A stretch of 64,000 nt of DNA from Protoeuglena noctilucae (taxonomy: Eukaryota): NCBI GenBank assembly GCA_958009085.1, contig OY253680.1, positions 620,001-684,000 of the forward strand. The letters run 5' to 3'. The translations under genes were made by a program, and so were the position numbers. This document shows positions 14,401 to 45,076 of the stretch, piece by piece (position 1 is the first letter of the stretch; each line of letters starts with the position of its first letter). The notes beneath the pieces are model-generated. The model did not search any database. It was given only the letters and a program-made list of their open reading frames with translations, and had not been told where the DNA came from.

Positions 14401-17400
14401 CATTGCGTCGCTGCGCTTGCATTGCCACCGTGAGTGCTACCCCCACCCTCACTGCCAACTTCACTGCACTGCCATCCCTCTACACCCACCACTGCACCCC
14501 CACCCACCCCCCCCCCCCCCCCCCACTACCATCCCCCACCCTCACCCCCACCCCCCCGCAGACGGGCGGCACCCTCACCCCCCCCACCTCCGATGCCGCG
14601 GCCACGATGGCATTCGGCACATCGATAGCGCTGTCCATGGACGGCAACTGGCTGGCCGTGGGGGCGCCATTCGACACGGTGAGGGAATGCGAATTGTTAA
14701 GTATAGGCAAAGACACTCGCATGGTCTCTGCAGCTGTGACCAACCCCACCCAACCACCACAAACCACCCCCCCACCCCACTCCCAACACCCCCACTCCCC
14801 CAGACCGCCCCCACCCCCCAGCCCGGCAGCGTGTACGTCTACCGCCGCAACCCCAGCACCAACGGCTTCAGCCTTCAGCAGTCCATCACAGGCGCCTCCC
14901 TCAACCTCAGCAACGGCTCCCGATTTGGCGCATCGGTCTCTATCGATGCATCGGGCACGTCTCTGTTGATCGGGTGTCCCTTGTGTTCGCCCAATGACGT
15001 GTCGCATGCGGGGGCGGCGTATTGGTTCAAGAGGAGGCCCAGCCCCAGCAGCACGGCGGTCACGCTGTTCAAACAGGCGAGGGGTTGGGGGGTTTGGGTG
15101 TGGGTGTGGGTGTGGTGGGCATGAGTGAGGGGTGTGATGGGCAAGTGCGGTGCTGCTTTACACATGCCTATCCATAATAGACCAAACCAAAACCAACTTA
15201 TAAACATACTTAATACCACTCCCTGCCCACCCCCCCTCACAGGTCACTGCTGACTTCAGCTCCACCCCCTCCACCCCCTACCTGACGGAGTTCGGGGGCC
15301 CCACCCAGGACAACCAATTCGGCATCATGGTCAAGCTGGACCGATACTCGGGGAGCATGGTGAGGGACGTATGTGGTGATTATGTTAGTGATGATAGTAC
15401 TGGTGATGGATGTATGGTGAAGCTGGACAGATACTTGGGGAGTATGGTGAGGGACAGAGTGGATGATATGCTGATGATAGAAGTCATACCTGAGCTCTCA
15501 CCAACCCACCCTACCCCACCCCACCCCACCCCCGCTCCCACCACCTGCCACTCCCTCACCCCACCCCACCCCTTCTCTCATCACTCTCAGTACCTTCAAT
15601 TTCGCCCCACTCACCAACCCCTCCCACCCTACCCCACTTCCCCCCCCTTCACAACCCCAGACCGGCGTCAGCAGCCGCGGCCCCGCCGTCAGCCAGGGCA
15701 AGAACTTCCTTGGCTCAGTCGGGTTCTACAAGCTACCCGGACAGACAGGAGTGGAGTTACAATCGCTGGATCTCGATTACACGGGGAATGGGGCCCAATC
15801 GGTGTCTCAGGTGGCCATGTCAGACACGCATGCCTGCGCGCTGATGGCGGACGGGAAGGTGGTGTGCTGGGGGAGCAACACTGCAGGGGCGCTGGGGTGA
15901 GTGGTGCTCTCTATATGAGTGATTGGGGTAGTGGTAGTGGTAGTGGTGATTGTGACTGTGATGGTAGTGATTGACAGGTGGTGTGCTGGGGGAGCAACGT
16001 GGCGGGGGCGCTGGGGTGAGTGAGTGGGATTGGGTGGTGGTGTTGATGATAGCGGTAGTGGTGGTGATGGTGGTGAGAGGTGGTGTGCTGGCTCGTCATC
16101 GTCCATCCTCACTTGCCTTTATACACTTATCCCCACCCCATCACCAACCCCATATCTCCCCCCCCCCCTATCTACAGCCGTGAGGACCAACCGGAGTCGT
16201 ACCTCTCTGGCGACACCCTCTCCGGCACCGGCCTCACCCTCTTGCCCATCTCCATGCCCGCCAACATCCCCGCCAAGTCCATCGCCGTCGGATACCACCA
16301 GACGTGTTTCATACAGCTGCTGTCAAACTGGCTGTACTGCTGGGGCCTGGATATGAACATCGACCGGGCTGCCACGCGGCTGCCCGTGGGCTACCAGGGC
16401 GCGGCCGGCGGTCTTTTATCGAATCTGACGAGTATCGATCTCGGGTCGGGCGCCAAGGTGCAGGCGGTGGGGACCTACAGGGCCACGTGCGCGGTCGTGA
16501 CGAGGTGAGCAGGGGTGGGGGGCTGGTAGTTAGTACAGGGGTATGGCCGTATCGGGTGCTGAATAACTGACAGACATTGGGACTGAGTGTTACAGGGCCA
16601 CGTGCGCGGTCGTGACGAGGTGAGGGGTGGGGTGGGGGTGGGGTGTAGTGTACAGAAGGTGGGTCGTGATAGTGACAGTGACAGTAATCATAAGACAAGA
16701 TAAGACAACAATATAACATCTTTATAACACCCATCCTTCCTCACAAAAATCTGAGCGTGAGCCCCGTGCTGGTCTGCTGGGGCCATTACAGTAGTAGAAA
16801 TAGTAACAGTGACAATAAGATAATAACAAGCCATTCTTAATTACCCAATCCCCTCTTTCTTTCAGGAACCTCAGCGTCGGCCCCGTGCTGGTCTGCTGGG
16901 GCCCGGCGGGCACCCCCCACGGCGGCGACACAGCATCCGCTCTGACACAGGTCTCTGGCATGCAGAGCCTGACGCTGGGGTCTGGCAACGGCACGACGTT
17001 CGTGAGCGTGTCGATGGGAAGCCAGCACGCTTGTGCTGTTGCCGCGGATTACACGGTGCGGTGTTGGGGGCTGGACCAGTATGGGTCGCTGGGGTACAAT
17101 GGGGCGGTGGAGAGCATCGGGAACAAGGCAAGTGGGTGATAGGATGAAAGGTTAACTAGTGTAATAGGATCAGTATATTATATTTATATTGATCTTAGTA
17201 GTGATATTTGGTGCTTACCATGTCGTGTCTCGCTACCAACACCCCACCACACAGTTAGCACCCCCCCTCCCCTACCCCTTACCTCAGAACACTTTCCTCG
17301 GCGATTCTGCGGGCGAAATGGCCACCGCAAACGCCATTAAGTACAAACCCCCACCGCCACCCCCGCCGCCACCCTCCCCACCCCCCAGCCCACCCCCACC

Positions 17401-20400
17401 ACCGTCGCCCCCACCCCCGCCCTCACCCCCACCTTCCCCGCCACCCTCACCGCCCCCACCAGCCCCACCGCCGCCCCGCGATGGGACTGGGACGTGGATG
17501 GTGGGGCCTGATTGTGGGGGTATCAAGAAGATTACATATGGCACGCTGGCGTCTTGGATTGAGCCCTATAGCGGCACCAAGGCATCAATCACCAATGACC
17601 TCACCGTCGACCTCAGCGTGAGTAGTAACTAACATGGGGTGGGGATGTATGGACACAAATGGAGATAGTTATAGTGATAATATAAATACAATAAGTACAA
17701 TAAGTGAGAGTAATAACAGTAATAGCACCGCAACAATCCCCACTCTCCCCCCATCTCCCCAGCCCGTCACTTCCTGTGATGTCGAGCCCCACATGTTCGG
17801 CCCCTCGATGCTGCTCGTGATGACCAGCAGTGTCCGACTGCCAGACGAGGACGTGCCAGTGGACCTGTTTCGCACCGACATGTGCCAGATCAACGACGCG
17901 ATCAACGTGGATCGATTCAAAGTGCATTTGAACGTCACGTTCGATCGGGGGGTGGCGGGGACGGCCAGCGTCAGGCGAGGGATGGGGGGGTGAAGTGCCT
18001 GGGTGGATGTTGCATAGCGGAGAGTCGATGGAATGTGATGCAGTTATACTATAGTACTATAATACTATCTCACCCACTCGCAGCGTGGACGGCGGCAACG
18101 ATTGGTACAAGCGCAACACGCTTAGCATGCTTAACACTTTAACCATATCGTATAATGTCCCATCCGTCTCCGCAGCGTGGACGGCGGCAATGATTGGTAC
18201 AAGCGCAACATGCGCAACCCCCGCAACGTGCTCCCCACCCGCCCCTCCAACACCTATCGATTCGCCATCGATTTCCAGGGCCCGCCCGTGCGACTGGAGT
18301 TCCCCTATTCCCGCAACTTCAACTGCGACCGCGGGCTGACGTTCACGGTGAATTGGACCGAGCCAGTCACGCTGGTGAGGGGGTAGGGGGGGGGTTGGGT
18401 GGGAATGTGGGTGGAGTGAAGGGGAGAGTGATGGAGAGTGAAGGTGAGAGTGGGGGTGGGGTAAAGAGTGATGGTGTGAGAGAGGATGACAGCCACGACA
18501 GTCGTTCTCACTTATAAATATCGTAGATTAGTATCGTATATACTATCCTCACTGTATCCCCCTCACCTCACCCACCCCCAGGCCAAGAGTGACATCCCAG
18601 GCGTGGTGTTCTCTTACCCAGACACCGACAGCAACAACAACAACACGACAAGCACCAACAATGCCACTCCATCACCAACACCATCGCAATCGCCATCACC
18701 ATCATCAACATCCACGCCATCACTCAACAACGCCACCCCCCCTCCCACCCCTACTCCCACCCCCACTGCTACCCCCACCGCCACCCCCGGCGTCCCTCTC
18801 CCCACCGACGTCCCCCCCACCCTCAGCAACGGCCTGCAACTCTCCCTGCAAGCCTACGACCCCTATTCTGGCATCGCCACGTTCTTCGCCAGTGCCCCTG
18901 GGCCGGGGTTCTATTTCATCCACGTGGCGGGCACCCGTGCTCCTAGACAGGGTGAAGACCCCAGTCAGAGAGTGGCGTTTACGGACTTATACGGGAATAA
19001 CGCCCAAGAGACGACGGAACTGGTGCAGTGTTACGTTCCCAGTTTGCTGGAAACGGGGGCGGCGGCAGCGGTGGCGCGGGGTGCGATCGTGGGGGCTGGG
19101 CTGGCGTTGGTTGGCACAACGATGGGAGCGGCGGCGTCGGTGGTTGGGGTGGCGCCCGGGGCGGGGGTGGGGGTGTCCGGTGCGGCTGCGGTGGGGATGG
19201 TGAACGCGCTGCAGGTGCTGGGGATGACGGCGACGCTCATGCCCGACAACCTGTCGCCGCAGCCCAGGGAGATTGCCGTGGTGAGGGGTGTGGTGGGGTG
19301 GGGGTGAAATGGGGAGTGGTGCTGAGTAAAGCCGATAATGGAAAGAGCTGCTTGGGCGCGGCTGACGTCACTGTACCACTGACCTGCACCAGTCATCGTT
19401 ACTTAGTCTAGTTATCATCAATCACCATCTATATGTCCACCCACCCCCCGCAGGCCATGGCGGGCACCTTCAACCTCGAGTACCCCGCGCCCTTTGGACT
19501 GGAGACGCAACTCACAAGGGGGCAGACCAACGTACTGCCAGTGGCAACAGATCAACTGCCTGATACAAACACAGGCACGGGAACAGCCACAAGCACTCCT
19601 GCTACCACTGCTACCCCCACTGCCACTGCTACCGCTGCCCCCACTGCAACCCCCACTGCCACCCCCGCTGCCAACCCCGCTGCCACCCCCGCTGCCACCC
19701 CCACTGCCACCCCCACGGCAAAGCGATCATTGTCTGGTGCGCTGAACCGCCCTCTGTCGCCTGCGGCCGTCTTCGACATCTACGGGCATCCGTTGGACAG
19801 GCCTGGGATGTCGAATGACGCAGGTGGCGATATGGACAGCGATGGCAGTGGTGGGGGCAGCAGTGATGGGAGCAGCAGCAGTGACGGTGGCAGCCGTGGC
19901 AGTCACAGCGACGGTCGCTGGCACAGCCGGGATGGAAGCAGTGCTAATGATGGCATCGACGATAACTATGATAACTATCACTGTGATCACTGTGACGACG
20001 AGCATCACCCTCACCACCACTCCTCATCGCCCTCCCACTCCCCCTCCCACGCCCGCCGCCTGTTCGCATCGCAAGTGGTCGACGCCTTAACAAAAGAGAA
20101 CGCCCTCCCACCCAACATGTCCATTTCCACCGCCCACCGCCTCGCCTACGACCTTACTGAGGCCGATTGGGCGTAAGTACAGTCCAGTCTGACGGAGCGC
20201 CGCGCCAGAAAACTGCTGGGCAACCCGGTTTCGGCGTGGAACAGCGTGCAGGGGAGCATGTCCGGGACGTTGCAGGGTCGATTCTCGGCGGGTCCCTACA
20301 CGTACGTTTTGAGGAAGCTCTTCTGGGTGGCCTTCACGCTGGGGCTCATCGCCGTGCCGCACGGGGCGGTCATGTTCGTGTACCTGGTGAGTGGGGGTGT

Positions 20401-23400
20401 GTGGGGTGGTAGATAGGGTCATGTTCGTGTACCTGGTGAGTGTTGGGGGTGTTGGGTGGGGGTGAGGGTGAGGGCCTAGCGCCGCCGCATGGCCCCCATG
20501 CCCACTGCATGCACGTCCCATATCACACTCCCCCCATCTAAGTGACTCACCCATGATCTATATCTTACCCACCCCATCTCCCCATTTCCCCCCAGGTCAT
20601 CCTCAAGCGCCCCCGCATGCCCCCCATGCTCGCCTTCCCCCGCCCGGAGATCTTCGTGCTGCAGATGACGCTGCCCGTGTCCATGCAGTGCGTCGCAAGC
20701 CTGTTCGCCATGCACCGCTGGCAGCCCATCGTGGTGAGTGTGCTGAATCTCAAGCGTCACACAGGTGTCAAAGTCGATTTCGTCGCACTGTCGACCTTAG
20801 TAGCACTTCATAACAACTACGAGTATAACACATAGTTCAATGATATCACTTTCACTTTTCCACTCATGCAGTACGGCGTGTTGCTTCTGCTGGCCATCCC
20901 CCTCCCCATCGTGGCCGGGGTCGTCAAGGCCGTCTGGGACACGCAGGCAAGTGCGATTGGGTGGAATGACTGTTAGTATTTTAATTCAAAAGTATATTTA
21001 TGATAAAATTTATAATTTTTTTATTATAAAAAAACATGCGTTTCATGCATTTTATTGTTACCATAATTACAATAATTTTAAACCACCATGACCTTCCCCC
21101 CCTTATCAATCCCTCCCCAGGTGAAGGTCCACGCGGTGGACCGCAAGTTCTACTATCTCGTGGATCGTTTGAAACTCCGGGAGGCTGCATTGCGCCGTCG
21201 TTGGTACACGGCATGGCTGGGGCCGTTCCGGGGACTGCCCCGGGGCGAGTGGGTGGCATCCGACGAAAGCGGGGAGCGATATTTGGCTAGATGGGGCCAA
21301 TTATTCGACAATTTGATTGGTCCCTTGGTGGTGAGGGTGGGCGACGACTATCGCTTTTTACCTTCGTTGTCGAGGTTCAATCGGGGGACGCTGGTGCCGT
21401 TCATTCCCGGGAAGTACAAGGACGCCAGGGATGTGCTGGAGAGGAGGAGGGCCAGGTGGATCATGAGCGGTGAGATGAGGGGTGGGGGGGGTGGGGTAGA
21501 GTGCATGATATGATGAGCGGTGAGGGGGATGGGGGCCGATGGATCGCGAGAGGTGTGGGTGGAGAGAGGATCAGGGTCAGGACTGTGGTTGATCTGCTAA
21601 TGCACCCACTCTCACCCTCACTGCCACCCCCACCCATTCACCCCCACCCCCACCCCACCCCCACCCTCACCCATTCACCCCCGCCCCCGCCCCCACTCCC
21701 ACCCCCCAGGCTACCTCCGCGTGCTGATGGTGTCCGTCCAAGCTCTGCTGACTTTCGGCCTGGTGCTGGCATTGGCGGTCATCCCCACCACCACCTCCAC
21801 CGCTGTCAGCCAATCGACGGGAATGACCGTGGTACAAGCGATACTGACTTGGGTGTTGATGACGGTGCACCCATATATCAAACTGGGCGATCAGGCGTCC
21901 TTTGCGCTTGGCGCGGTGTCAGCGGGTTTCACCTATCTGCTACTGATCGCGGCGAATGGGGTGGCTGCCAGTGCAAACGCGAAATACCGAATGGCGGCGG
22001 GGCTGGTGCTGGGCAGGCTGCTGCTGTTCACCATATTCCTGGGCGTGGCGGTGTTCGCCTTCTCTCAGCTGTGGAGCGTGTGGTCGTTTATAGCGTGGAT
22101 CAGGCGAGTTGATTGGGTATTTGGGTATTTGGTGGGGGGTGTAATGATAATAGTAATTATATTTACTTTACTTATTATATTTACTTTACTTGATTCTTTA
22201 CTATTGTAAAATGATCAGTGAATAGAGACTGTTGCTAACATACATACATGTTTCATAACATACATGTTTCATCTCCTCGCAGGGACATGGTCAATGACCT
22301 TTTAGAGTCGCGGGGCAGGAAGAAGCACTTTGAGACCACGGCAGACCAGGCGGCACTCGAGGTAAGTTATATAATATGTGAAATATAATATAATATAAAT
22401 ATAAATATAAAAACCAAATTACTTGCAGGTGCGCCAGGGCATGTTGGCGAAGAAGTACGCCAACCGTTGGATGTTCTACGCGCTCCATCGCCCCCTGCAC
22501 GGCTGGCCGCGATTGGACGAGCCGACCGCTGCGGAGCGGAAGGAGTTGCGGAGACTGGCGTTGCGGGTCGCCAGAGAGCACGACGATTTCGTGGAATTGG
22601 ACTGGCTCAGCCGCATACGGGAGGGAGGGGCGGAGGCGACACGGAAGGTTGGGGGGGGGGGGTAGTGGGGGGGGGGGGGGGGGTGTTAATGAGTGGGGTA
22701 GAAGAGGGGGGTTGGGATGCATAGCATCAACGAGTGCCCTGGTTTACCATCTCACCTTCTCTCACGCCTGCTCACCACACCTCCGTCGTTCCGCCCCACA
22801 ACACCACCCCAGCCCACATCCACCTATCAAACCCCACACCCTCAACACTCCACCTTACCCCTCACCATCCCCCAGGCCGCCCGCGAGAGGCGCCTGCAGA
22901 AGAAGAAAGTGGTGGGCGGCGATGACGACGGGAATGGTGGACTGGCGCTGGATGATGCGCTGCGCAGGCAGGACGACCACGTGAAGAGGGCCAGGGAGAC
23001 GTACGGGTACCGGTGAGAGTGGGGGTGGTTGAATGGTAGTAGTTATGGTGATTGTTATAGTGAATAGTGGTAGTGGTAGTGAATAGTGGTAGTGGTAGTG
23101 AAGAGGGCCAGGGAGACGTACGGGTACCGGTGAGAGTGGGGGTGGTTAAATGGTACTGGTAGTGGTGGTGGTGGTGGTAAGGAAGACAGCGTGCGATGGC
23201 CACCCCACCCCTCTCACCCACCCCTCTCAACCCCACCCCTCTCACCCACCCCTCTCAACCCCACCCCTCTCACCCACCCCACTCACCCCACTCACCCCTC
23301 TCAACCCCACCCCTCTCACCCACCCCACTCACCCCACTCACCCCTCTCAACCCCACCCCTCTCACCCACCCCTCTCACCCCACCCACTCCCCCACACCCA

Positions 23401-24218
23401 ACCCACCCCACTCCCCACTCCCCCCCCCAGCCTTGGCCGCCGCGCTGCCAATTTCCTCATGGGCCGGGGATTCCAGGCCAACGACGCCCAGGGACAGCAA
23501 CGTGCTGCGGACATGAGGAGACTCGACACGGTTCGTGCTGTGAGGGGGTACGTGGATGTGGAGGAGGGGGGGCTACCCTACGACGTGGAGAGGGGGCAGG
23601 TGAGGGGATGTAGGGGTATGTAGGTGCAGAGATTACAGAGAGGTTTTAGATTTTATCGGATGCAATGGGTTGTTAAGCATCTGTTTGCTACCATGCAACC
23701 CCTCTCTCCTCTCACCCCCCTCACCCCACACCCTCACCCCTCACCCTCACGCGCAGCCCCGCATCCCCGGCCCCACCAGCGAGCTGGCGGGTGGCAACTG
23801 GATGCTCGACCGCTTTTTGTTTGGAGATGGGAGGGCGAGTGGTGATGCGACATCGACCATCAAACAGAAGAGCGGGGTGGGTGCAGGGCCGGGCAGTGGC
23901 ACGCGCACTGGGCTGGGCGGGAGTGCAAATGGGGAGGGGGCGGAGGAGTTGGGGAGTGGGGAGGGGTGGAAGTGGTGGTGGTGGGGGCAGGGGGCGGGGG
24001 GGGCGGGGGAGGTGGGGAGTGTGGAGGTGGAGGGTGGGGATGATGAGCGGGAGAGGGAGGGGGAGAGTGAGGGGGAGGAGGGGGGTGGGAGAACGTGGGG
24101 GTGGTGGGGGAGGCGGGGTGAGAGGAGAGGGGGTGGGGAGGGAAGAGGGGGTGGGGAGGGGGAGGGGGGTGAGGGGGCGGGGCGGGCCGTTGCAAATCGT
24201 AAGAGGAAGGTGCGGTGA
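11415..24218 (+). CDS. Very large secreted/membrane receptor-like protein: signal peptide, RCC1/BLIP-II-like repeats, FG-GAP propeller repeats, SPn Pro-rich linker, TP-rich stalks, multi-pass TRP-like TM region, cytosolic tail (~25 exons)
   Basis: Signal MRGRGR..VALALAALVLAALCCFSAEA. RCC1-type TCVMDNFAGTTKCWGN, SCALMTDGTIQCFGSNSFGALG, HACALMADGKVVCWGSN, HACAVAADYTVRCWG. FG-GAP AFGSSVAISADG, AFGTSIALSMDGNWLAVGAPF, RFGASVSIDASGTSLLIGCP. PPPPSPPPSPPP at 17350-17478. Hydrophobic helices at 19060-19250, 20320-20390, 20600-20940, 21710-22100. Confidence 0.8.
23201..23425. repeat. C/A-rich intronic minisatellite (units like CCCCACCCCTCTCACCCACCCCTCTCAA)
   Basis: Tandem iteration is directly visible just upstream of the acceptor at ~23430. 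Confidence 0.85.
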
Positions 24219-26563: not shown

Positions 26564-26860
26564 ATCTACGAGATGCCGCTGTGATTTCGGACCACCTGTG
26601 CCCCCACTGAGAAACCGAGATGTGGAAAAGCGCAACCCTGCCCGCGCTTCGGGGATGAAGAGCGCAGGAAATCTGCCACCATGGTGCGCCAGTGCAGCAC
26701 CTGATCCGTTGTGGCAGCGATGATCATTTGCTGGCGTTCATTGGATGCCCTGCGTCATGCACAGCGTCTGTAGAGGGCCAAGTTGACGGCAGAGACTGCG
26801 CTCCCTACCTCCGCTAATCGTGCTGCGGGGCCCGTGCTGCACTGAGCAGGCCCTTGCTTG

Positions 26861-32763: not shown

Positions 32764-32985
32764 CGGGCGGGTGACTAGGCAGCGCGCCGGCGTGGGGTGC
32801 ATTCCGTCGCGATCGCCGATGCAGCGCTGCACGGCCGCTCGACCCGCGGGGCGCTGCGGATGCGCCTTGCCGACCATGTGACATGTGACGGCGTAACTGT
32901 TGAATGAGTCATCACATCTTGTCGCTTCCCTCGTCGGCCACCATCACACGTAACCGGTGAATGCGATCACATCTCTTGAATGCGA

Positions 32986-33851: not shown

Positions 33852-34518
33852 TTCTGGAATCTGCGGTCGGAACGGGAAGGAGGGAATTGGCCCTCTTTTC
33901 AAGGGCTTCCCGGGAACGCGGACGACGCGCGCCGCGGTCAAGACGGTGTGCGCAAACTATCGAAGCAATCACGAAACACGTGGACGCCTGTGGTGTAAAC
34001 GGCACGCCCTGTGTTGGCCCCGCCACCGGCCTGGAGCCAAACCGCCTTCGAGGTCCTGACCAGACTCCCCCGCCGTCCATGGGAAGCAGCGCGTGGACCC
34101 ACCTATTCAACAGAACCAAAGTATCACGCTGGATGTCGTCGGGGCGAGCGCGAGAGCCTGTGTTTGACCCCTCGCTCTGCAGCACTGGGTGCGAACAGCT
34201 TTACGGCTCCCAGGCTCGTTGCTGCTTGGGATGGCTCGCTGGCGCAGTGAGTTGATCATCTCTAGCACCGCCGTCCGCCCCAAAATCTTAAACTCGGCTG
34301 CGCAGCGCATGCCAGCTGCGGGGGCAGTCCCTGCACAATCGCCAGTGGGCCTAGAGAGAGAGCAAGCAAAAGCGTCAAGTCATCCGGCAGTGCCACTGCT
34401 GCCACGAGCGACCGGGCCCGCCCCGGGACTACTAGCCCTCCGACCCGAGGGCAGCCTCAGACCATTTAAACAGGGGCAGTCTCGATCCACAGCCAAACAG
34501 CGAAGGACGTTCGCGGCG

Positions 34519-36426
34519 TCACGGCATGGGCATGCGGCACACGGAGCTCCCCGGCGAGTCCTCGACTTGGATGGTGGAGTGCTTGAGCCCCCGCCGATGC
34601 GCGACCTTCTCGCAGCTGCTGAGGACCTCGCGCCAGTCGGCCCCCGGCGCCAGCACGACGTGGCAGGAGAAGAGGGGCACGCCGGCCGAGAGCTGCCAGA
34701 GGTGCAGGTCGTGCACCTGCGCCACGCCGGGCACCCGCGCGAGGTCCAAGTGCAGGTCGCACGCCTGCTGGTCCCTGTAAACACGACGCGGTCAGGTAGG
34801 TGTTGGTTGTGAAGTGACCAACCGCCACAGGTGCAGCGCTGAACATGCTCAAGCAGTGTTGTGCAGGCACACAGGTTATGCCATGTCTAAACTTGTCACT
34901 TGCATGTCCTGGCAGCCGTGATCGCATGTAAGACGCTCGGCTGCTGCGATATCGATCGTGGCAATACCCATCGCACGTTGTCCTCACCTCGGCGCCCGCT
35001 CCATGAGGACGTCGCTGAGCTCGCGGAGGATGCCCGAGGTGGTGAGGAGGACCAGGACCGAGAACAGGAAGGTGCAGGCGGGGTCCGCGTAGGTCCAGAA
35101 GCTATACCCTCCCGGCCGGATCCATATCAGCAACCCTGCGATGATCACCCCAATGTTCTGGATGCCGTCGCCGATCGCGTGCAGCAGCGCCGCGCGCTGG
35201 TTGACGCTGTCGTGGTGTCCGTGGCCGTGCGAGTGGCCGTGCGCATCGTGTGACGAATTGTCCGAGGGAGAGTGGGAGTGGCTCTCCGTATCGCTGTCCG
35301 AGTGGCTGTGGTCATGGTCGTGATCATGGTCATGGTGATCGTCGTGGTCGTGGTCGTGGTCGTCGTTGTGGCTGCGGCCGTGACGGGAATGACCATGCCC
35401 ATGACCATGACCGTGGCTGTGACCGTGGCGACTGTGACCATGACCATGACCATGACCATGACTGTGACCATGCCCATGCCCATGCCCGTGGTGGTGGTGG
35501 CCATGACCGTGCAGCACGAGAGCGATGAAGACGTTGGACGCCAATCCCAGGCACCCCACAATGACCATCATCTTGCCATTCACCTCCTGCGGGGCCAGGC
35601 CAGGGTGCGTGTCTGACCAACGCAGCTGCCGCTGCTGGCGCGCAGTGGCGTGCATTCACTCAATGTGGCACCAGCGCCACGCTCGCATGCAATTGCAATG
35701 CGCAGCGCTCTCGCCTGCGGATGCAGCATCCGGCCCACCGCCTCCCACACGAGGATGCCCGTCACGCCCCACACCAGCATCACTGACGCCAGCGCCCCCA
35801 GCACCTCCGCCCGCAGGTACCCGAAGCTGTGCGTCGACGAGGGCGTCTTGCTGGCGTAGCTGCGGGTGCAACAACATTTGTTGTGTTCGCATAAATGTGG
35901 CGCAGCTGTATAAGGACTCCAGCGGAGCGCTGCATGCCAAACCACGCACCTCTGTGCCACCAGCGCCACTGCAAACCCCGTCACGTCCGAGAGCATGTGG
36001 ACGGAATCGCTCCACAGAGCCAGACTGTTCGAAATGTAGGCCGCAATCATCTCGATCCTGCGACGGCGCAGCGGGCGGCGGCAATCATGCGCAGCGTGCG
36101 GGCGCACGGGTGTAGCTAGCCGGCCGCGCGGGCCCGGGGCGCCGCGGAGCTGCGTCCGCGGGCATGGCCACTCACGCCATGAATGTCGCGGAGAAGAGGA
36201 GGGCCCCCAGCAGCTTCCAGCGCCCCTCGGCCCTCCGGTTCATGGCGGCCTCGAGCTCGGGGTGCCTGCCGTCGAAAAGGTGACATGTCGTGGCCTCCTC
36301 AGGCGCGGACACGACGAAATCGATCCCACTGAACATCTCCACGACCGTCCGCCACCACGTCCGGCGGTCGGCGTCGCGGGCGCCATCCCCCGTCTCCACG
36401 TCCAGCCGCTCGAACCCCCCGGGCAT
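34519..36426 (-). CDS. Cation diffusion facilitator zinc transporter (ZnT/MTP1-like) with long His-rich loop
   Basis: SNSLALWSDSVHMLSDVTGF, HSFGYLRAEVLGALASV, a (HG)n/HD-rich loop at 35215-35515, NQRAALLHAIGD, ADPACTFLFS, VHDLHLWQL, HSTIQVE. Confidence 0.93.
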
Positions 36427-37080
36427 CCCAGACCCCCCAAACTGCGAGCCCGGCAGAAGGTTAGATGCTCATGGATGCGCTGTGACAGGCGCGGGGCACG
36501 CAGCGATATCGGGGCGTTCAAAGGCTCTCACCGCAGACGCACGAGACGACACCGAGGGCCGCGCCCCGGCCGCGGGATGAAACCCCGGCCCCGCGGGAGT
36601 CTCGTCCCGACCCGAGGGCGGGTGAGGTCTTGCGGCGCCGCACCGGCGAGGAGCCGCGAGGATACTTTTAGCCTGTGAAATGCCTGGTACCGCTCGACCG
36701 CAGCTGTCCACCGGAGCTGCAGGCGTGACGAAGGCTGCGTGGGGGCCGCCCCTGCGGTCCGGATGTTCGAGGGACGCTGCTGTTTCCGACACCCCCAGTC
36801 AGACGGCGCGTCCTGTGACGAAAACCAACACCTTACTGCGCGCTGGGGACACGGACACTAGCTGGTATCGTGACGGAGGCCGGTGGCAGTCGCCGCCCCA
36901 GACGGCGTGCTCGGGGAGCTGAACATGCAGAACGCGTGGCTTTCCTTCCTCTTCAGGCGCTAACAGCGCCCATCTCCTTGGCTCGAACCCTTTGTTACAA
37001 GCACCTTGACCGTTCCGCTACCTCCGCATTCGTCGCGCCATGGCGGAGCACGCGAATCGGCCCGACAGCGCACGTGCGCC

Positions 37081-40000
37081 ATGGCTAGCCGCGCGCACGC
37101 CGCTGTCCCCCTCCCGCGTGCCATCGCGTTCACCGGCGGTTCCGTATCCTTCGCAGGGGGCGCCAACGACGCCAAGCGCCGCCATGCCCGCTGGCAACTG
37201 CACGACACATTCCGCAAGGAGCTCGTGGAGCGCTTCAACCACATCTCCGCGAAGCTGGACCAGGCGAAAAAGCCCGAGATCCTGCGGTGAGGGACAATGG
37301 ACGCGATCGCGTTCGCGCTTTGCGCATCGGGCCTGCGGGGAGCCGGTCGCCGGCCGGCATGCACGGCCGCGCAGGCTGGACCGTCCCTCCGCGCCCGACG
37401 CCCGCCGCGCCCGGCCCCGCGCAGGGACAAGGCGGTGCGGAAACGCGAGGAGTACGCGTTGCGGCAGATCCAGAGCGAGGGCAGCATCCGCGGCGCGGGC
37501 AACTGGAGCGAGCTGAGCCTGACCCAGCCCTCGGCGCTCTCCCTCCGGAGCTACGTGCTCCCGAGCGTGCGCACCGGGCCCGTCATCGCGGACGCAGATC
37601 GCCACCGCGTCGTCCCCGTCAGGTGAAGCTTGCGGGTGGCGCGGTGAGGTCCTTAGAGCTTACGTGCGGAGCTGTGCTGCTTGCTGACGCACCCCATCGC
37701 CGCACATGTCTCTTAATACCATGCACCACTCCTATTTCTACTATGTCTTGAGCCCAGCTGGTCACACTGCAGCCCACCAGACTGGTACGTCAACCACGCA
37801 ACCCCGACCGCCCCACCAAACCACCCCCACCCCCACCCCCAACCTTCCCCCCCGCAGCGAAGTGAAGATCGAGCGTGTGGAGATGAACCGTCTCATCAAC
37901 ATCAACGTCCACCGCACCGCACGCACATTGGTGGAAGAGAGCTTGACGGACCGACGTGACGCCTTGATGGAGGAGGCGTGTCAGCTGTTCGGCTCTCGGC
38001 TGTCGCTCTACCGCAGCTTCGGGATCCGGGACCGGGAGCGGCGCATCGTGAACAAGCTGCAGCGGCTGGTGGAGAACGCGCTCGTGCAGAGGGTCGAGGT
38101 GGAGCTGGAGAGGCGAGTGGGGTGTGACGTGGGGTTGCGGAGCGGGAGGTGGGGTGGGGTGATGAGAGAATGAGAGAGCCGGGGTTGGCAACCCGGGAGG
38201 CATACTTGGTATTGATTGCTTCGCCGCCTCGCTTTCACAACAACAACGTTAACGACAACGCAGTTATACACACGTCACGCCAGTGTCGTGCCGCAGGTTG
38301 CGTGAGGGTGCCCGCGGGGAGCCCGTGATCTTAGACGAGGCGCGCAACCGAGTGCTGAAGGAGCTGCAGGATTACATGGGAGTGGGTCCCACTAGCAGCA
38401 GGGGTCATCACACACACCCGGCCGTCGCATCGCAACACGGGGGGGGGCAGCCGCTCACCCGTGCCCACGCAGCGGAAGCCACAGCGACCGCCGCCGCCGC
38501 GCAGCAATCGCCCGGGCAGCGGGCGGCGAAAGCGGGGCCGGCGGGAGGCGCTAGGCGGGGGTCTGCGGCTGGGATCGCCCCAGGCATGGCCCCCACCGCC
38601 AATGCTGCCGGTGCTGATGCGAAACTCAGCAAGGTGCGGGGATCGTTTCTGGCACTGGAGGCCTTTCGCACGAGTATGGAATCTGAGGGATTGGTTGCGG
38701 GGAATAGCATGCGTCGCGGGAGCAACGCGAGGGGTGGGAGAGGGGGCGGGGCGGGGGTGCACTTTGGGCAGGGTGAGGGGGAGGGTGGGGGGGTGGGGGT
38801 GGGGGGTAAGATGGGGGCGGGGGAGGTGGGGCAGGAGGTGGGGGGTAAGGCGCGGGGGAGTGGGCTGGCGGGGGTGGCGGATGCGGCGAGAGGGAAGGGG
38901 GCGGGGGGAGGGGGAGGGGGCGGGGGGTGCGGGGGTGGCAATGGGGGTGGCGGTGGGGGCAGAGGAGGGTCCTGAGGCAGTGTTATCGAGAGAGGTGCAG
39001 GAGTTGGTGGAAAAGCACGGAGGGCCGAGGGAGGGGGTGGCGTGGCGGGGGCTGGCGGGGATTCTGGCGTACGAGGTGGGTGGGGGGTGTTGTGGGGTGT
39101 GTGGGGTGTCAAGCATCGCATCAACTGGCACTCTTGTCCTCTCACCATTCATTGACACTCCTATCTCCTCACCATCTCCACAGAAGCAGTCCACCACCCA
39201 CCGCCTGGAGCCCAGCGGTGCCGAGTCCGGGTCTCAGGGCGCGTCGGAGCTGGCCCGTTTAAACAGAGAGGCCATGCAGAGAATCGAGGGAAAGGAGGAG
39301 GGGCAGGGGAGGGGGGAGGCGAAGGTGACGATGAGATGTGAATGCACATGCATGTGATGTGAGTGGGGAAGGAGGAGGGGCAGGGGAGGGGGGAGGCGAA
39401 GGCGAGGATGAGGATGCATATGTACATGCGATGCGGTGTGAATGTGTCAATTGTGAGTGGGGAAGGAAGAGGGGCAGGGGAGGGGGGAAGCCAAGGCGAG
39501 GAAGTGTTTGTAATATGAAAACACAAATGTGTGTTTATCCGACACCTTGTGTGTTTCGATTCACATCATGTCTCACCCAACACCCCATATGCTCGCTTAC
39601 GCAACTCACTCCAACTCTCTGTCTCTCCGTCTATCTATCGCAGAGGTTCACGATGGACGCCCCCCTGCAAAGCCTGATGGAGGACTCTTGTTTCTACTTC
39701 CTGCCCGGCATCCGATCGAAGCTCATCGGGGGACCATCCGCGCTGAAGGCTGTCGTGGCCAAGGCACTGGTGAGGCGTAAAGGGGGGGAGGGAGGGTGGC
39801 AGTGGGGCTGGCAGTGTGGGTGGTACTGAAGGCTGTGGTGGCAAAGGCACTGGTGAGGCGTAAAGGGGGGGAGGGAGGGTGGCAGTGGGGCTGGCAGTGT
39901 GGGTGGTACTGAAGGCTGTGGTGGCAAAGGCACTGGTGAGGTGTAAGAGGGGTGGGTGGGTTGGCACTGAAGGCGGTCGTGGCAAAGGCACTGGTGAGGG

Positions 40001-43000
40001 GCACGGGGGGAGGGGGGGTTGAGGGTGGGGGTGGGGGTGGCAGTGGGGGTGGTGGTAAGGGTGAGGGTGGGTCCTTGACTTTACTAGTAGTAGTATGCAA
40101 TTCACCCCCCTCACTCACTCCCTCACCGCAGGGCGACTCTCTTACCATGAAATCCGGCTCCCTGACCCACACACATCGCAAAGCGCTTTGACTACCAAGT
40201 GCAATTCACCCACCCTCACTTATACCCACCGCAGGGCGACTCATTGACCACCAAGTCCGGCTCCCTCACGCGTGGCTCCCCTCCCCGCTTCAAGGGGGGC
40301 AACGCGATGGAGGTGTCGGTGGCCAACGCCGTGAGGGAGTTTGTGGTCATGGGGAGGGACACGGGGCTGGACACGTTCAGGTGAGGGAGGGGAGGGGGTG
40401 ATGGGGATGTGATATGAGACAAAGATGAGGCGAGAGATGGGAAGAGGAGGGTGACGGGCATCACGCAGCAACTCAACCTCCCTTACTCGCTCTCACTTAC
40501 TCTCCCACTCCCACTCCCGCAGCCTCTCCATCACGCAGCAGCTGAACCTCACTCACTCACTTCCCCACCCCACCCCCACCCCCACCATACCCGCAGCCTG
40601 TCCATCGCGCAGCAGCTCAACCTGGATCGCTGCGATTTGTCCGTGGCGCTGCAAAGGTCCACCAAGGCACTCCGCAACATCGGCACATGCCTGTCTAACA
40701 TGCCAGCCTGCAAGGCGGTGGTGAGTGACGAAGCTCACTGCAGTGTGGAATGACGCATAGCTCTTAACTGCCCCTCCCCCCCAGTCTTTCCGCTACCACT
40801 AATACAATTACGACTCATTCTACTCCTACTTATACAATCACTCTTACTCCCATCCCCAGTCCCTCCGCTACGACTCATACTATTACCACTCACGCAATTA
40901 CTACTGCTTTTCTTACAAGTCCCCTCCCTTCCCCCCCCAGTCCCTTCGTTACAACTTCCTCAAAGTCCGCCACATATCCGACATCCTCACCGCCATCCGC
41001 ACCCACTGCCCCGCCAGCCCGGCGCTGAATGCTTTGGATCTGTCGTGGAACGAAGTGGGGGCGCCCGCCAGCCTGGCACCCGTGCCAAGCATCGGTGAGG
41101 GGTGCAATGATGGGGGGTGGTGATGGGTGCAGCGGCGATGCGATGCTGACCATACGGCATGTGATCGATAGCAATCGCCATCCCATCTCATACTCGATCA
41201 TATCAAGGTTGCATCAACCTTATTAAACCCCCCATCTGCCCCCCTTCCCCAGTCCGCCGCGGCCGGTCGAAGGAGTCCGGGTGGCCCACGATGGCGAGGG
41301 AATCATATGCGGGTTCCTTGGTCAGCGAGGACTCGTTTACTGGCAGACTGACGCGGGCGCAGCAGGAGGCGAGAAGGGCGGCCAAGAAGATGCTCGAGGT
41401 GAGGGATGATGGGAGGTGACCAGATAGTTAGTATATACTATATACTAACTACTCACTAGTTACTGCTGACGGGTGGAGTTGATAAGGCGGCGAAGAAGAT
41501 GCTGGAGGTGAGGGGAGTGGATGTGGGTTGATGTGGGGTGGCAGTTAAGCAGGGGAGGTGGTCGATAAAGCCAGGAGAGCTGCTTAACCCCACTCTCACC
41601 TCCAATCCCCACTCCCACCCCACACTGTCACCCCCAGCCCCACCCTAACCCTTACCCACACAGTCACTCGCACCCCCCCTCACTCACTCTACCCCCACCC
41701 TCACCCACACCCCCCTACCCCCTCCCCAACACCCCCCAACCCCACACCCACCTCCCCCCCCCAGCGCCACAACTCCTTCAAAGAGGGCCTGGCCCAGGGC
41801 GGCATCGCCACATCGGAGCTGCTCGCCACCGACCTGCGCAGCGGCACCGTTAATGACGCGGACCTTAGGGAGCTCATGGGGGGGTCTAAGCAGGGGCCGG
41901 GGCAGGGTGCTAAATTGGGGGATTTCGCTTGGGTGGATACGGTGATGGTGGAGGTGGACAGGAGGGGGCTGCCGGCGGCGATGGCGAGGAAGGGGAGGGT
42001 GCCGAGGGCGACCGTGCAAGTCGGTGAGGGGGTGGGTGGAGTGGTGTTGGTTTGTATTATAACATAGTTACTGTTATACTGTTATAGGTTTGTAGTTGAG
42101 GGGGAGGGTGCCGAGGGGGGCGGTGGCGGTCGGTGAGGGGTCGATGGGAGGAGTGGTGTTGGTTTGCAGTCCGAATGTGCGATCGTCGCATACAGCTCAT
42201 ATTGATCTATTCTCATTAGCTAATTCCAATCCCATCTTCTCCACTCCACACAGCCCCAGAGCTCGACCTGGACGAGGCTACTGCCTCCCCCGCCCCCGCC
42301 ATGTGCGCCATCTCTGCCTTTCTCGTCAGGGAGGCAGTGCTGTTTCCGACACTGGCGGCGCCGGGGGACCCCTTCGTGGGGTGGATGGGGGTCACGGGTG
42401 AGTGATGGTATGATGATGTTATATTGATTGATGATGAATGGTAACAAGTGATAGCAGTGGATGGGATGTGCATGGGACCCCTTTGTGGGGTGGATGGGGG
42501 TGACACTATATGTCGATATTCACAATACAATAGTATATTACATGTATAGATATAGATATATACAAAGAAACACACACATCACCCCCTCATCCCCCCAGAG
42601 AGCCGTGCGGTGCGTTTGGTGGGCCTGCGAGCGTTGGTGGAGCTGGGGTGGTTACAAGACGAGTCGCCCATCGTTGACGACGACGACGATGATAACAGTC
42701 GCATCGATCGTAATAATTACACTACCAACAATCACGAAGACAGGCCAGGGGCAGCTGACGGGGCCAGCCGTGGCACGAGGGGCAACGCGGGGAGCGTGCG
42801 GGAGGGTGATGGTGGGGATGAAATGCGAAGCGTGGCCGGGAGTGAGAGGAGCCGGGGGGGCGGCGGCGAGTCGCAGAGCGTTGCGGGGAGCGAAGCGGGC
42901 AAGCGGGGGGGGTGGGAGGCGGCGAGAGGGGCAGCGGGGTTGGATGCGGGGGGATGGGGAGCGGTAGCACGGAGCGTGGGGGGCGCGATGGGCCGAAAGA

Positions 43001-45076
43001 AGAAAAAGGAGCCTTTTGTGCTTGGGAAAGACGGGAAACTGCCTGCGATCGTGGGGGATCTGTTCGATGTGGCTGACTTGGACCCGGGGGAGCTGCCGCT
43101 GTCGACATACGGCCATGTGGATGGGGCGGGGCTGTGGCACCCGGAGATGAAGGTGAGAGGAAGTGGGGGGTCTAATGTGTAATTGAATTTACTTATTTCA
43201 ACTATGTGGTGGTTGATATGGGTCGTGGTGTGTGGCACCCGGAGATGAAGGTGAGAAGAGGGAAGGGTGGCAGCGGATGGGATTGTGATGTGTAGAGGTG
43301 GAGGTACATGAGACACTGTCGTGAACATCTCACAGCGATTACTGTTTTACGATAGTAATTGTAACGATACACCTCCTTATCCTCTCCCCACCCCTTACCA
43401 CCCAGGCCGGTCTGGTGGAGTTGCCCGGCGGCCGCATCTCTCAGTTGGTGTTGGAGGGGAATGAGATTCAAGACACGGCGACATTGGGGCTGCTGGGCGT
43501 GACGGTCGCGCACTGCAGGGGGCTGCGGGAGCTGTCGCTGTCCAACAACCTCATCGCCACCGCGGGGGTGGGGGCGCTGTGCAACGGGCTCAGGTGAGTG
43601 GAAGGGGGTAGGGGTAGGGATGGGAGTGATGGTGTGGGAGTGATTGTGGTAGGGATGGGTAGCAGAGTGGGGGCGCTGTGCAACGGGCTCAGGTGAGAGG
43701 GGGATGGGTGGTTAATTGTAGCGTTACTGTGGTGACAAGAGTTATGGTCGTATTAATTAAATTCTGATGCCCTCTCCTATCCGCACTTCCTTCCCTTTCG
43801 AACCCACACCCCCCTCCCTCACAGCCCACACCCCACCACCTCACCCCCCCTCATCCCCACCCCCCTCACCCCCTCACCCCCCAGGTTCGCCCCCCACCTC
43901 CGCGCCTTGGACCTCTCCTTCAATGACCTGGACGCCCGGTCAGTCGAGGAACTGGCGCTGATCATGCCGGCGTTGAGGGGACTGCAGGCGCTGGACCTGT
44001 CGTGGAATGTGCTGGGGGACGAGGGGGTGTCGTGCGTGGCGGCCGCGCTGCCGGACGCGCTGGCCATGACGGAGGTGAGGGGGGTACTGGGAAAATGATG
44101 AGCGGTTAAGATACTTTAATGATCGGGAGGGGGGGGGGGGGTTGGTGTGATGTGGCATTGTGGCGGCACTGCTGGACGCGCTCGCCATGACGGAGGTGAG
44201 GGGGTGGTGGGGTGGGAAGATATGGGTGAATGGTCGACATGGCTTGATGATGGGGGTCCTATGGTGTCATGTTGTGTTGTAATTTCACTGCCGGAAGCTC
44301 CCACCCCACGCGCAACGCCTTAGCTCCACCTCAACAATACGACACCCACCGTCTCACAAACACCGTCTCCCTTACTCTTAACACCCACTATCACCTTCCC
44401 CTCACAGCTCCACCTCAACAGTGTCGGTTGCTCCGACGAGGGTGCCCGTCTCATACCCACTGTCACCGTCTCACACTCACTGTCACCGAGCAACACCCAC
44501 CCACTGTCACTGAGTAACACTCACTGAATAGCACCCTCCCTCCCCCACTCCCAGCTCCACCTCAACAGCGTGGGCTGCTCCGACGAGGCCGCCATTTGCC
44601 TGAGCGAGGCTCTGCGGGAGTCACCGGGGCTGCCCATGCAGCTGCTGGGGCTGGACGGCAACGTGTTCACGAACGAGGGGATGCAGGCGCTGACCGAGGC
44701 CGTCAAGCAGAGGTAAGGGTGTAATGGGGGTGTTTGTGGCAGTGAGTGGGGGGCATGTGGCAGTAGATGGGGTTAAGCAGAGGTGGGCGTGGGGGCAATG
44801 GGGCAGTGGGTGGAGTGCATGAGAGTGACTGTGTTTATAGCAGTATGTGCGGTGCTGATCACAGCAATGATGCAACCACACAGTGACACCCTGGCCTCTC
44901 TCTCACACAACGATGCCCTTCACATCCCACTTCTCCGCCTCTCTTCTCTCTCAACACCGCCCACCACTCCCTTCTCCCCCCCCAGGGGCACCACCCTGTC
45001 CGTCATTGCACCGGGACTCAACAACGCAGTCTTCCATGACTGTGAGGGGAAGCCCGTGGGGACGGCTGCCTCGTAA
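37081..45076 (+). CDS. Large protein with RNI-like leucine-rich repeats (~18 exons)
   Basis: LRR units QQLNLDRCDL, LNALDLSWNEVG, ISQLVLEGNEIQD, LRELSLSNNLIATAGVGAL, LRALDLSFNDL, LQALDLSWNVLGDEGV, LHLNSVGCSDEA, LLGLDGNVFTNEGM. Frame-consistent exon chain from ATG 37081 to TAA 45074-45076. Confidence 0.75.
39741..40000 (+). repeat. Four-copy tandem array of an exon end plus 5' splice site (CTGAAGGCnGTnGTGGCnAAGGCACTG|GTGAGG)
   Basis: Copies start at 39743, 39826, 39909 and 39967 (periods 83, 83, 58 bp). Confidence 0.9.

Follow-up and report, generated by a model that had tools for sequence, protein, structure and literature searches.

Introns gained by tandem duplication of an AGGT-containing exon segment have a recognizable structure, in which the 3' end of the intron repeats the end of the upstream exon and its 5' start repeats the start of the downstream exon. 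In the model associated with Hellsten and colleagues, a duplicated exon segment reportedly becomes the new intron, and its 3' end repeats the upstream exon end. Introns of teleost fish carry GT-rich repeats at the 5' end and AC-rich repeats at the 3' end that pair across the intron.

The available text of Hellsten et al. 2011 treats the tandem-duplication origin of introns (PMC3265369), and internal gene duplication is among the intron-creating mechanisms named in the accessible part of another article (PMC9860276). The same part describes Introners as multi-copy families that create new introns, leave target duplications of 3-9 bp and are common in marine protists. Repeats that straddle an exon-intron boundary have also been described. 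[quoted passage not shown] In FGG, a pathogenic duplication of the exon 8-intron 8 junction is described in the part of the report available (PMC9052919). Here, we describe copies of exon ends, with their splice sites, inside the introns of two neighboring genes of Protoeuglena noctilucae.

Materials and Methods

The window analyzed was a stretch of 64,000 nt from Protoeuglena noctilucae (GCA_958009085.1, contig OY253680.1, 620,001-684,000 of the forward strand), a marine alga with a GC-rich genome. Coordinates are those of the window. Local repeats were scanned with k=11 seeds at copy distances of 25-400. For the junction test, each flank in genes A and B, taken as 50 exonic and 8 intronic nt, was aligned against its own intron and against every other intron, and 812 comparisons of non-adjacent exons and introns served as the null for echo scores. 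Exon models of both genes were checked by open frame, and 29 introns were scored (17 of gene A, from 15360 on, and 12 of gene B). For region 25500-45499, the window was compared with metagenome contigs from two marine DNA runs, X5 and X6.

Results

Echo Frequency and Specificity

An echo of the adjacent exon end was present in 16 of the 29 introns of genes A and B, both on the + strand. Flanks aligned to their own introns scored 50-80 on the donor side (13 cases) and 29-76 on the acceptor side (7 cases), compared with null scores that averaged 15.1 (maximum 30) for donors and 13.9 (maximum 28) for acceptors. These sides, 13 donor and 7 acceptor, have a first unit lying across the exon-intron boundary, which repeats the splice site within the intron. 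No echo was found in any of the 15 RNA-supported introns of neighboring genes. The echoes exceed chance and are specific to the gene and the intron class.

An earlier note on this DNA had claimed that introns hold copies of the neighboring exon end, and 18 of its 21 listed sets lay clearly above the null; the repeat scan recovered the pairs to within a few bases. Three sets fared less well: that at 40782/40857/40938 barely exceeded the null maximum with a score of 29, that at 21462/21512 scored 28, which exceeds the 99th percentile (25) but not the null maximum, and that at 44703/44773, with a score of 21, did not rise above the null. The outer copies at 40459 and 44322 sit in confirmed sets and carry no separate scores.

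Gene A

The modelled part of gene A (15243..24218, + strand) belongs to a large RCC1-repeat protein gene with RCC1_2 matches and contains 17 introns from 15360 on, 6 of which hold strong echoes. Its frame is open except for one in-frame TAA, and its protein aligns colinearly with an ORF of 2529 aa in locus L001 that has no introns. The alignment with this homologue is ungapped at 16 of the 17 junctions; at 17990, the model has five extra residues relative to the homologue, which suggests another donor there. Further exons lie upstream, from about 13021.

The first donor-side pair consists of an exon copy at 15327-15368 and an echo at 15414-15455 (38/42 identical). It is followed by a donor-side array of 2.15 copies (15857..16091), with units at 15857 and 15976, a truncated third at 16078, and two spacers that are mutually related. 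One intron carries both a donor-side pair at 16476..16624 (34/34 identical, 115 nt apart) and an acceptor-side pair, with its echo at 16748-16784 and its exon copy at 16867-16903. The acceptor-side pair at 18079..18213 has an echo (18079-18121) with AG intact. A second doubly echoed intron, at 20368..20629, combines the donor echo 20368/20417 (26/26 identical, 49 nt apart) with an acceptor-side echo at 20478/20606 that was absent from the earlier list and scored 38. In the donor-side pair at 22981..23155, 58 nt are repeated at 98% identity, 117 nt apart. All of these features are on the + strand.

Gene B

Gene B (39200..45076, + strand) is a leucine-rich-repeat protein gene with LRR_6 matches and 12 introns, of which 10 contain echoes. 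With the outer donor and last acceptor, its frame is open from 39644 to a stop at 45076. Among the RNA junctions listed for region 25500-45499, none belonged to gene B.

All echo loci of gene B are likewise on the + strand. Its first is a donor-side array with copies at 39288, 39365 and 39459 (39288..39502), both echoes of which have GC instead of GT. The four-copy donor-side array at 39743..39999 includes, as copies 2 and 3, an 83-nt tandem repeat with identical spacers (44/44). On the acceptor side, a pair at 40124..40269 (103 nt apart) and an array with units at 40459 and 40516-40549 and its exon copy at 40590-40623 are both bridged by the X5 contig 40023-41626, and the weak set at 40782..40956 follows. 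Donor-side pairs were found at 41365..41514 (110 nt apart, with an unrelated spacer) and at 41989..42166, where likeness reaches about 35 nt into the intron. At 42365..42504, a 28-nt copy consists of exon only, as it stops 5 nt short of the junction and has no donor. The pair at 43121..43259 has a core identical at 26/26 positions and is bridged by contigs of both X5 and X6; in the pair at 43568..43700 (31/31 identical), the first copy is where the listed contigs of both runs stop, at 43597. The last donor-side pair, 44041/44162, has a possible partial third copy at 44288-44298 (44041..44298). The final acceptor-side array has units at 44322 and 44398-44441 and its exon copy at 44545-44588, and X5 contig 44125-44880 bridges it.

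Independent DNA that crosses both copies came from the metagenome contigs of X5 and X6 (40023-41626, 41728-42919, 41742-43597, 42905-43597, 44125-44880 and 44209-44989), which matched the window with 0-1 differences and 0 gaps. At least eight of the previously listed pair or copy sets of gene B were crossed without any difference, with both copies in series, and no alternative structure, indel or variant letter was listed for gene B in the two runs. The gene B copies are real DNA, which rules against an assembly artefact there.

Geometry and Boundaries of the Copies

The copies, direct duplications of the junction segment, are spaced 49-147 nt apart (mean 103), and repeat spans range from 24 to 70 nt, mostly 30-50. 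The exon part of the copies measures 19-61 nt (mean 33.9, sd 8.1), exceeds 40 nt in only 1 of 19 cases, and is about 34 nt on donor and acceptor sides alike. Clear identity continues 5-12 nt into the intron, and copies are 85-100% identical. The donor motif, three bases of exon and six of intron, is kept in 10 of 13 first echo copies, while two more have a one-base change after GTGAG; in several acceptor echoes, the AG and pyrimidine tract are intact. Donor-side echoes lie 49-171 nt from the donor, and at least 86 nt of intron (at 15897), usually 150-250 nt, remain beyond them. Alignments of exon flanks with the far end of their own introns gave background scores only.

The left boundary of the repeated patch is sharp and has no microhomology, whereas the right boundary fades gradually, with shifts of 3-6 nt, into the G-rich zone. 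The earlier description of the DNA between copies as usually unrelated survives in part. The spacer resembled the sequence after the echo more than every non-cognate pair did in only 3 of 12 donor pairs (mean 0.63 vs. 0.60), and in at least 7 of 12 it was no more alike than non-cognate pairs, beside patches that are 90-100% identical. Against it, the first 10-20 nt past the patch are still alike, with shifts of 3-6 nt, in most donor pairs. Cognate spacers taken together outscored permuted pairings, the observed sum being reached in 459 of 10000 permutations. At 39743 (83-nt period, 95%), 39288 and 15857, likeness extends over the whole unit including the spacer. The view that these are not simple minisatellites is accordingly half right, as three to five loci repeat in plain tandem with the spacer included. 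Recurrence, which the note had also proposed, is borne out by arrays of 3-4 copies at the same junction (39288, 39743, 40459, 44322) and by partial terminal third copies at 16078 and, possibly, 44288.

The differences that separate exon from echo are unevenly distributed. By exon base, donor-side differences affect 16 of 85 C sites compared with 2 of 159 G sites; the echo patch nevertheless keeps 81% of its C sites, in a 5' intron zone that is 7% C. By codon position, with about 225 sites in each class, the differences number 8, 13 and 32 at the first, second and third, third positions differing more than would be expected of a copy in free decay. This third-position excess persists after stratification by base, and C loss explains only part of it.

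A Distinct Intron Class

Genes A and B contain a special intron class that is almost confined to them, with a GTGAG donor, a 5' zone rich in G/T and poor in C, an AT-rich core, and a 3' zone rich in C and poor in G. These introns are predicted to fold more stably than shuffled sequences (mean z about -2.4 vs. -0.3 for 15 control introns), and many pairs in the predicted folds link the complementary 5' and 3' zones. Mean length is about 300 nt for introns with echoes and about 175 nt for those without; the echo units account for the extra length, in agreement with the earlier claim that the process grows introns. The C and G zones of the same introns also contain many tandem repeats that lie wholly within the intron. 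Another gene in the window has intronic tandem duplications of 40-46 nt, one of which begins at its donor.

Searches within the window for a source or family returned little. Among 34 introns, only three matches between introns appeared, all low-complexity and in the C zone, and spacers had only low-complexity matches in the 64 kb. Inverted repeats were limited to low-complexity matches between G and C zones, and no paralogue of gene A or B was found within the window. As far as the window shows, then, no transposon family is involved, in line with the note, which could name no element with this pattern.

Discussion

Putting the odds a little above even, we favor the reading that small tandem duplications, with units of about 50-150 nt (mean 103), have repeatedly straddled splice junctions and left the echoes as scars. 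An error of replication or repair would duplicate a segment with about 34 nt of exon, the splice site and the adjoining start or end of the intron. As the donor farthest upstream and the acceptor farthest downstream would then be spliced, the extra copy would stay intronic. If the outer sites are used in this way, the mRNA is unchanged and the duplication is therefore tolerated, whereas a duplication wholly within an exon would not be. Events would be concentrated in one intron class, whose low-complexity zones may be prone to slippage. Because such zones change fast by small insertions and deletions, the intron-derived part of a unit should soon become unalignable, with the complex exon patch still recognizable. 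Once two copies are present, unequal exchange could produce the arrays of 3-4. The duplication mechanism, its neutrality and the fast decay of spacers are parts of this account that we infer.

Use of the outer sites is suggested by the gene models. With the outermost donor and last acceptor, both genes have an open frame and gene A also a protein colinear with the homologue, which points to an unchanged mRNA; on this sequence evidence, the coding mRNA would require the outer sites. The suggestion that the process turns over splice sites thus found no support. Nor, as stated, did the proposal of a junction-centered process. In a simulation on genes A and B, 50-62% of tolerated random 100-nt tandem duplications spanned exactly one junction; with about half to two thirds of them doing so, no junction-seeking process is needed, and intronic tandem repeats are common besides. 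The loss of C sites also fits an echo that drifts towards the make-up of the C-poor 5' zone.

Two observations go beyond this random-duplication null, namely the narrow exon part (33.9 nt, compared with 54.8 expected under uniform breakpoints, P = 3e-5) and the patches of 90-100% identity beside poorly alignable spacers. Selection against long exon copies is our guess at the cause of the former. As a single tandem duplication leaves two equally old spacer copies, the unlikeness of most spacers counts against it, and so do the absence of microhomology at the left boundary, the third-position excess and the exon-only echo at 42365.

Splice junctions may instead be targeted. Structured intron ends, or the splicing or transcription machinery upon them, would trigger breaks or template switches, and a patch fixed at about 40 nt (the splice site and about 34 nt of exon) would be copied about 100 nt deeper on both sides. 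The patch might then be kept exon-like by short-tract conversion. We regard this as possible, if doubtful; if true, it would represent a new, directional route of intron growth and a source of spare splice sites.

Break repair with long staggered ends would address the same features differently. Structure-prone intron ends, with runs of G behind the donor and of C ahead of the acceptor, would be nicked about 40 nt apart on both strands, fill-in would yield a long target-site duplication, unrelated filler would be captured, and unequal exchange would generate the arrays. The narrow patch length, with its roughly 34 nt of exon on both sides, agrees with such an origin, as do the sharp left boundary without microhomology, the spacers mostly unlike the sequence that follows despite near-identical patches, and the predicted stable folding with pairing of 5' and 3' zones. 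However, the right boundary is not sharp and likeness runs on into the G zone, several loci are plain tandem repeats, and no spacer source was found in the 64-kb window. Spacers are also C-poor like the local zone next to patches that keep most of their C sites, which makes random filler unlikely. We consider this origin rather unlikely.

The third-position excess (32 vs. 8 and 13), kept after stratification by base, is what would be seen between coding copies, and could indicate unequal recombination between diverged alleles or paralogues. With exon ends conserved and introns hypervariable, a misaligned exchange would join the exon end and intron start of one to the exon end and whole intron of the other, which would also leave patches alike and spacers unrelated. 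Yet this demands unalignable introns beside exon divergence of 0-15%, the donor-side differences are mostly C loss, as in intronic decay, no paralogue lies in the window, and the two metagenome runs listed no alternative structure, indel or variant letter. Its probability appears small.

Selection could keep the copies as RNA elements, that is, as back-up or decoy sites or as switches to unproductive splicing that reduce expression. The frequently unchanged donor motif, the acceptor echoes with AG and pyrimidine tract, the near-invariant G sites of donor-side echoes and the much better preservation of patch than spacer would all be in keeping with this. But a splice site needs no 30 nt of exon, the length that use of an echo site would add is mostly not a multiple of three (87, 119, 115, 49, 117, 77, 83, and others), and neighboring genes have no echoes, so we think such a role very unlikely.

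Footprints of a mobile element, such as an Introner-like transposon that makes or extends introns, are highly improbable. An inserted stretch is indeed bordered by direct repeats, one stereotyped layout with complementary ends is common to the introns of genes A and B, and the L001 homologue of gene A is intronless; against this, no multi-copy family was met among introns and spacers of the window, the host intron is complete without the echo, and the repeats measure 24-58 nt rather than the 3-9 bp given for Introners in the available text of PMC9860276. Assembly artefact, whether from haplotypes placed in series or from gap filling, appears exceedingly improbable, and nothing was found in its favor: the metagenome contigs cover gene B and leave the gene A copies with the window as their one DNA source, but they were made by another assembler, and point changes separate the copies, so that any word path across spacer and echo depends on reads linking the two. 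Separately, intron gain by tandem duplication of an AGGT segment was rejected, as echoes are interior and exon flanks score at background against the far intron end.

If the pattern proves genome-wide in this intron class, it would provide a visible and datable record of intron lengthening and of the origin of spare splice sites. Dozens of identical rival donors and acceptors at 50-150 nt would also make it a natural experiment in how splice sites are chosen, and genes predicted or reads mapped in GC-rich algal genomes could be led astray by it in practice. In that case, strains might be told apart by their copies.

Comparison with Known Systems

Predicted end-to-end folds of the introns of genes A and B, with their complementary G/T-rich and C-rich ends, recall teleost introns, although this likeness concerns the host introns and not the echoes, comes from another organism, and rests here on predicted pairing. 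As in internal gene duplication, a small intragenic tandem duplication doubles splice signals and splicing restores the transcript; unlike there, the intron pre-exists and the copy is interior, 50-150 nt from the junction. Introners resemble the echoes as insertions in genes flanked by direct repeats, but in the window no family was found, and the repeats are of 24-58 nt. The FGG allele shares the duplication of an exon-intron junction segment; in the part of that report available, however, it is one disease allele that harms expression (PMC9052919), whereas here there are many copies per gene, apparently tolerated, and those of gene B are the same in two environmental samples.

Human F7 has, like genes A and B, a repeat unit that spans the exon-intron boundary. 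Use of the upstream site is a described feature of F7, and in genes A and B it is suggested by frame and homologue. According to the available text, F7 is a single locus of contiguous 37-bp units (PMC1557585), whereas the echoes occur in 16 of 29 introns, on donor and acceptor sides, in units of about 100 nt with most spacers diverged. Boundary-spanning repeats are known as single cases, while here two genes have them in over half of their introns and on both sides of the intron.

Echoes of exon ends in two genes

Two genes in this region carry, within their introns, copies of the adjacent exon end, usually with its donor or acceptor (echoes): an RCC1-like gene (gene A, + strand, 18 exons modelled over 15243-24218, with RCC1_2 repeats) and a leucine-rich repeat gene (gene B, 39200 to 45076, + strand, LRR_6 repeats). 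These copies are real, in that a local direct-repeat scan recovered the pairs listed in the earlier note. Aligned to their own introns, exon flanks scored 50-80 on 13 donor sides and 29-76 on seven acceptor sides, above a null of 812 alignments of exon flanks to non-adjacent introns (maximum 30 for donors, 28 for acceptors). At least one echo was present in 16 of the 29 introns examined (6/17 in gene A, 10/12 in gene B). Eighteen of the 21 sets first proposed were clear, while 40782/40857/40938 lay just over the null (29), 21462/21512 was marginal (28) and 44703/44773 was not upheld (21). One echo had been missed (20478/20606, score 38). Fifteen RNA-supported introns of neighbouring genes (30885-36532) yielded none, with a maximum score of 19.

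For gene B, the echoes are real DNA and not an assembly artefact, because contigs that were built separately from the reads of two metagenome runs carry them without gaps and cross at least eight of the proposed sets; the stretch compared, 25500-45499, takes in gene B. These contigs span 40023-41626, 41728-42919, 41742-43597, 42905-43597, 44125-44880 and 44209-44989, with 0-1 differences. Both runs' listed contigs stop at 43597, within the first copy of an exact 31-nt repeat at 43568.

The well-kept segment of each copy (the patch) has an exon part of 19-61 nt (mean 33.9, sd 8.1, n = 19), alike on donor and acceptor sides, and an intron part of 5-12 nt; the two copies are 49-147 nt apart (mean 103). 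The same donor motif is retained in 10 of 13 first donor echoes, and several acceptor echoes keep the AG and pyrimidine tract. On its left the patch ends abruptly, and no microhomology marks that edge. The DNA between copies (the spacer) had been described as usually unrelated, and only 3 of 12 spacers beat every non-cognate sequence; this description must nevertheless be tempered, as likeness tails off gradually past the right boundary, through the G-rich zone and with 3-6 nt shifts, and three loci have related spacers. Those at 39743, 39288 and 15857 are in fact plain tandem arrays, so that the exclusion of simple minisatellites is only half right. Overall, the spacer compared with the sequence after the echo gave 0.63, against 0.60 for non-cognate pairs (permutation: 459 of 10000). 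Partial terminal copies were seen at 16078 and 44288. Of 13 sites inspected beyond the second unit for microhomology or a partial third copy, only 2 showed either. A search for inverted exon copies returned only complements between G and C zones. Separately, two direct copies of 23 nt lie 75 nt apart at 8977-9074 on the - strand, in a frame that is open throughout; they could be part of a coding repeat, or a third gene might have an acceptor-side echo here.

Donor-side echoes differ from their exons at 16 of 85 C sites and at 2 of 159 G sites; the echo is drifting towards the C-poor composition of its new surroundings. By codon position, exon/echo differences number 8, 13 and 32 (positions 1, 2 and 3). 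Much of this third-position excess is explained by C being lost in the 5' zone, on which ground coding-like divergence of the echoes was set aside. Part of it persists, however, when bases are compared class by class, and also at acceptors.

Gene models and the choice of splice sites

The window has a G+C content of 63% and contains intron-rich eukaryotic genes. Sampled words of the window recur, as near-identical DNA, in the runs of one coded organism at a share of 0.98 and in marine metagenome runs at 0.93 and 0.89; marine metatranscriptomes contain about a quarter of the window's words. Exon models of genes A and B were built by hand and checked by script for an open frame, taking the outermost copy of every splice site (the first donor, the last acceptor). 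These choices leave gene B without interruption between 39644 and its terminal stop, and gene A likewise save for a single in-frame TAA (20174-20176). This TAA has open frame on either side and aligns with a leucine of an intronless homologue; candidate causes are a nonsense mutation, which would make gene A a young pseudogene, an error of sequencing, and read-through. Exon translations of both genes had zero matches among the longer proteins of the protein database, and a protein atlas search gave nothing usable for them; consequently no transcript-derived protein confirms the junctions. RNA depth over gene B is about 1-9, and the best 15 of 43 RNA-supported joints all fall within neighbouring genes.

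A metagenome scan for relatives returned four loci of 72-74% GC. As none of the four has introns that could carry echoes, the lack of echoes there is uninformative on their presence or absence. In one of them (L001, a 74% G+C contig), positions 1824-9413 form a single unbroken ORF of 2529 aa; it is a homologue of gene A, at 40-51% identity, and shares its proline/serine-rich stretch. Given this unbroken frame, the at least 20 introns of gene A must be recent gains, unless the L001 lineage lost every one of them. The gene A model is colinear with the ORF, with ungapped alignment at 16 of 17 junctions, and this colinearity at the chosen junctions speaks for the outer copies being the sites spliced in the coding mRNA of gene A. 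At the remaining junction (GT donor at 17990) the model is five residues longer than the homologue. A GC donor about 14 nt upstream (17976) would remove these residues, which suggests that it is the real donor. In gene B the open frame, the sole basis there, likewise supports use of the outer copies.

A distinct class of host introns

In genes A and B the introns open with a GTGAG donor and a 5' zone rich in G/T and poor in C (first 60 nt: 7% C, 42% G), followed by an AT-rich core and a C-rich 3' zone (last 60 nt: 46% C, 7% G). Such paired zones are almost confined to these two genes within the window, and neighbouring genes have introns of ordinary GC-rich sequence, with GC donors in 6 of the 15 RNA-supported control introns. 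Two intron classes thus stand side by side, one at 13366-23760 and 38753-45800 and the ordinary type at 30885-36532. The 5' and 3' zones are complementary, and many predicted pairs join the two intron ends; predicted folds are more stable than those of mononucleotide shuffles, with a mean z of about -2.4 in the 29 introns versus -0.3 in the 15 controls. The C and G zones often contain tandem repeats, whose periods range over 6-74 nt. A large tandem array of about 230 nt (23200-23429; units of 28, 46 and 74 nt) occupies the C-rich 3' zone of intron 23013-23430, and by eye its unit holds the donor-type motif GGTGAG in reverse complement. Elsewhere, summed contig depth at 34838-35504 is very high in all four runs compared (up to 7290) over hexamer repeats (35308-35484), probably reflecting low-complexity words common to many organisms.

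Origin of the echoes

We lean, modestly, towards recurrent tandem duplication of segments of about 100 nt, in introns prone to slippage and with selection deciding which copies persist. Any duplication confined to an exon would harm the protein, while one straddling a junction would be harmless if the outer splice site were used. When 100-nt duplications were simulated on the models of genes A and B, 50-62% of those that would be tolerated spanned one junction, and therefore the association with junctions needs no special mechanism. Repeated duplication at junctions, as the earlier note proposed, is retained, with no need for a dedicated junction-centred process; its suggestion that introns grow in this way is supported, the greater length of echo-bearing introns being accounted for by the echo units. 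Intronic tandem duplications of 40-46 nt also occur in the window outside genes A and B: in another + strand gene, a 46-nt duplication (3474-3563) starts 2-3 nt before the donor, which is thereby repeated, and one intron on a 40-nt duplication (4574-4650) is wholly intronic.

Tandem duplication does not explain two features, the narrow exon part (over 40 nt in just one case of 19, where a mean of 54.8 is expected; P = 3e-5) and patches kept far better than their spacers, 100% identical patches adjoining spacers that defy alignment. Because of these features, rivals stay alive. Repair of staggered breaks at structured intron ends, leaving a target duplication of about 40 nt plus filler, is possible but unlikely: the spacers are C-poor like the local zone, whereas the equally old patch retains most of its C sites, which argues against filler. 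Exchange between diverged alleles seems to us quite improbable, and a further, improbable reading would have the patch maintained by conversion over short tracts or by selection. A transposon origin found no support, and no source of filler turned up: inside the window, the matches of spacers and introns are confined to low-complexity DNA, and a search there for a shared family among them found none.

Comparison with known systems

Single boundary-spanning repeats or junction duplications are described in the available text of three reports (PMC1557585, PMC9052919, PMC3265369). Relative to these, the gene-wide pattern of junction copies is new as far as the literature covered goes, which takes in few subscription journals: we found no account of systematic copies of this kind. 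The direct repeats of genes A and B are far longer than the 3-9 bp given for Introners in the accessible part of PMC9860276. Emiliania huxleyi is described, in the portion available, as having frequent GC-AG introns and a G+C content of about 65% (PMC4028052), and the GC-rich window with its many GC donors resembles it, without this amounting to an identification. Pelagomonas, at 0.45 introns per gene in the available text of PMC9481584, has far fewer introns per gene than the window's genes and is an unlikely source. A likeness in mechanism would be to the minisatellite of human F7 intron 7, where use of the outer site at a boundary-spanning repeat is reported as shown experimentally (PMC1557585, available text): in genes A and B a junction-straddling duplication would likewise be tolerated if the outer site, as the frame suggests, is the one used.
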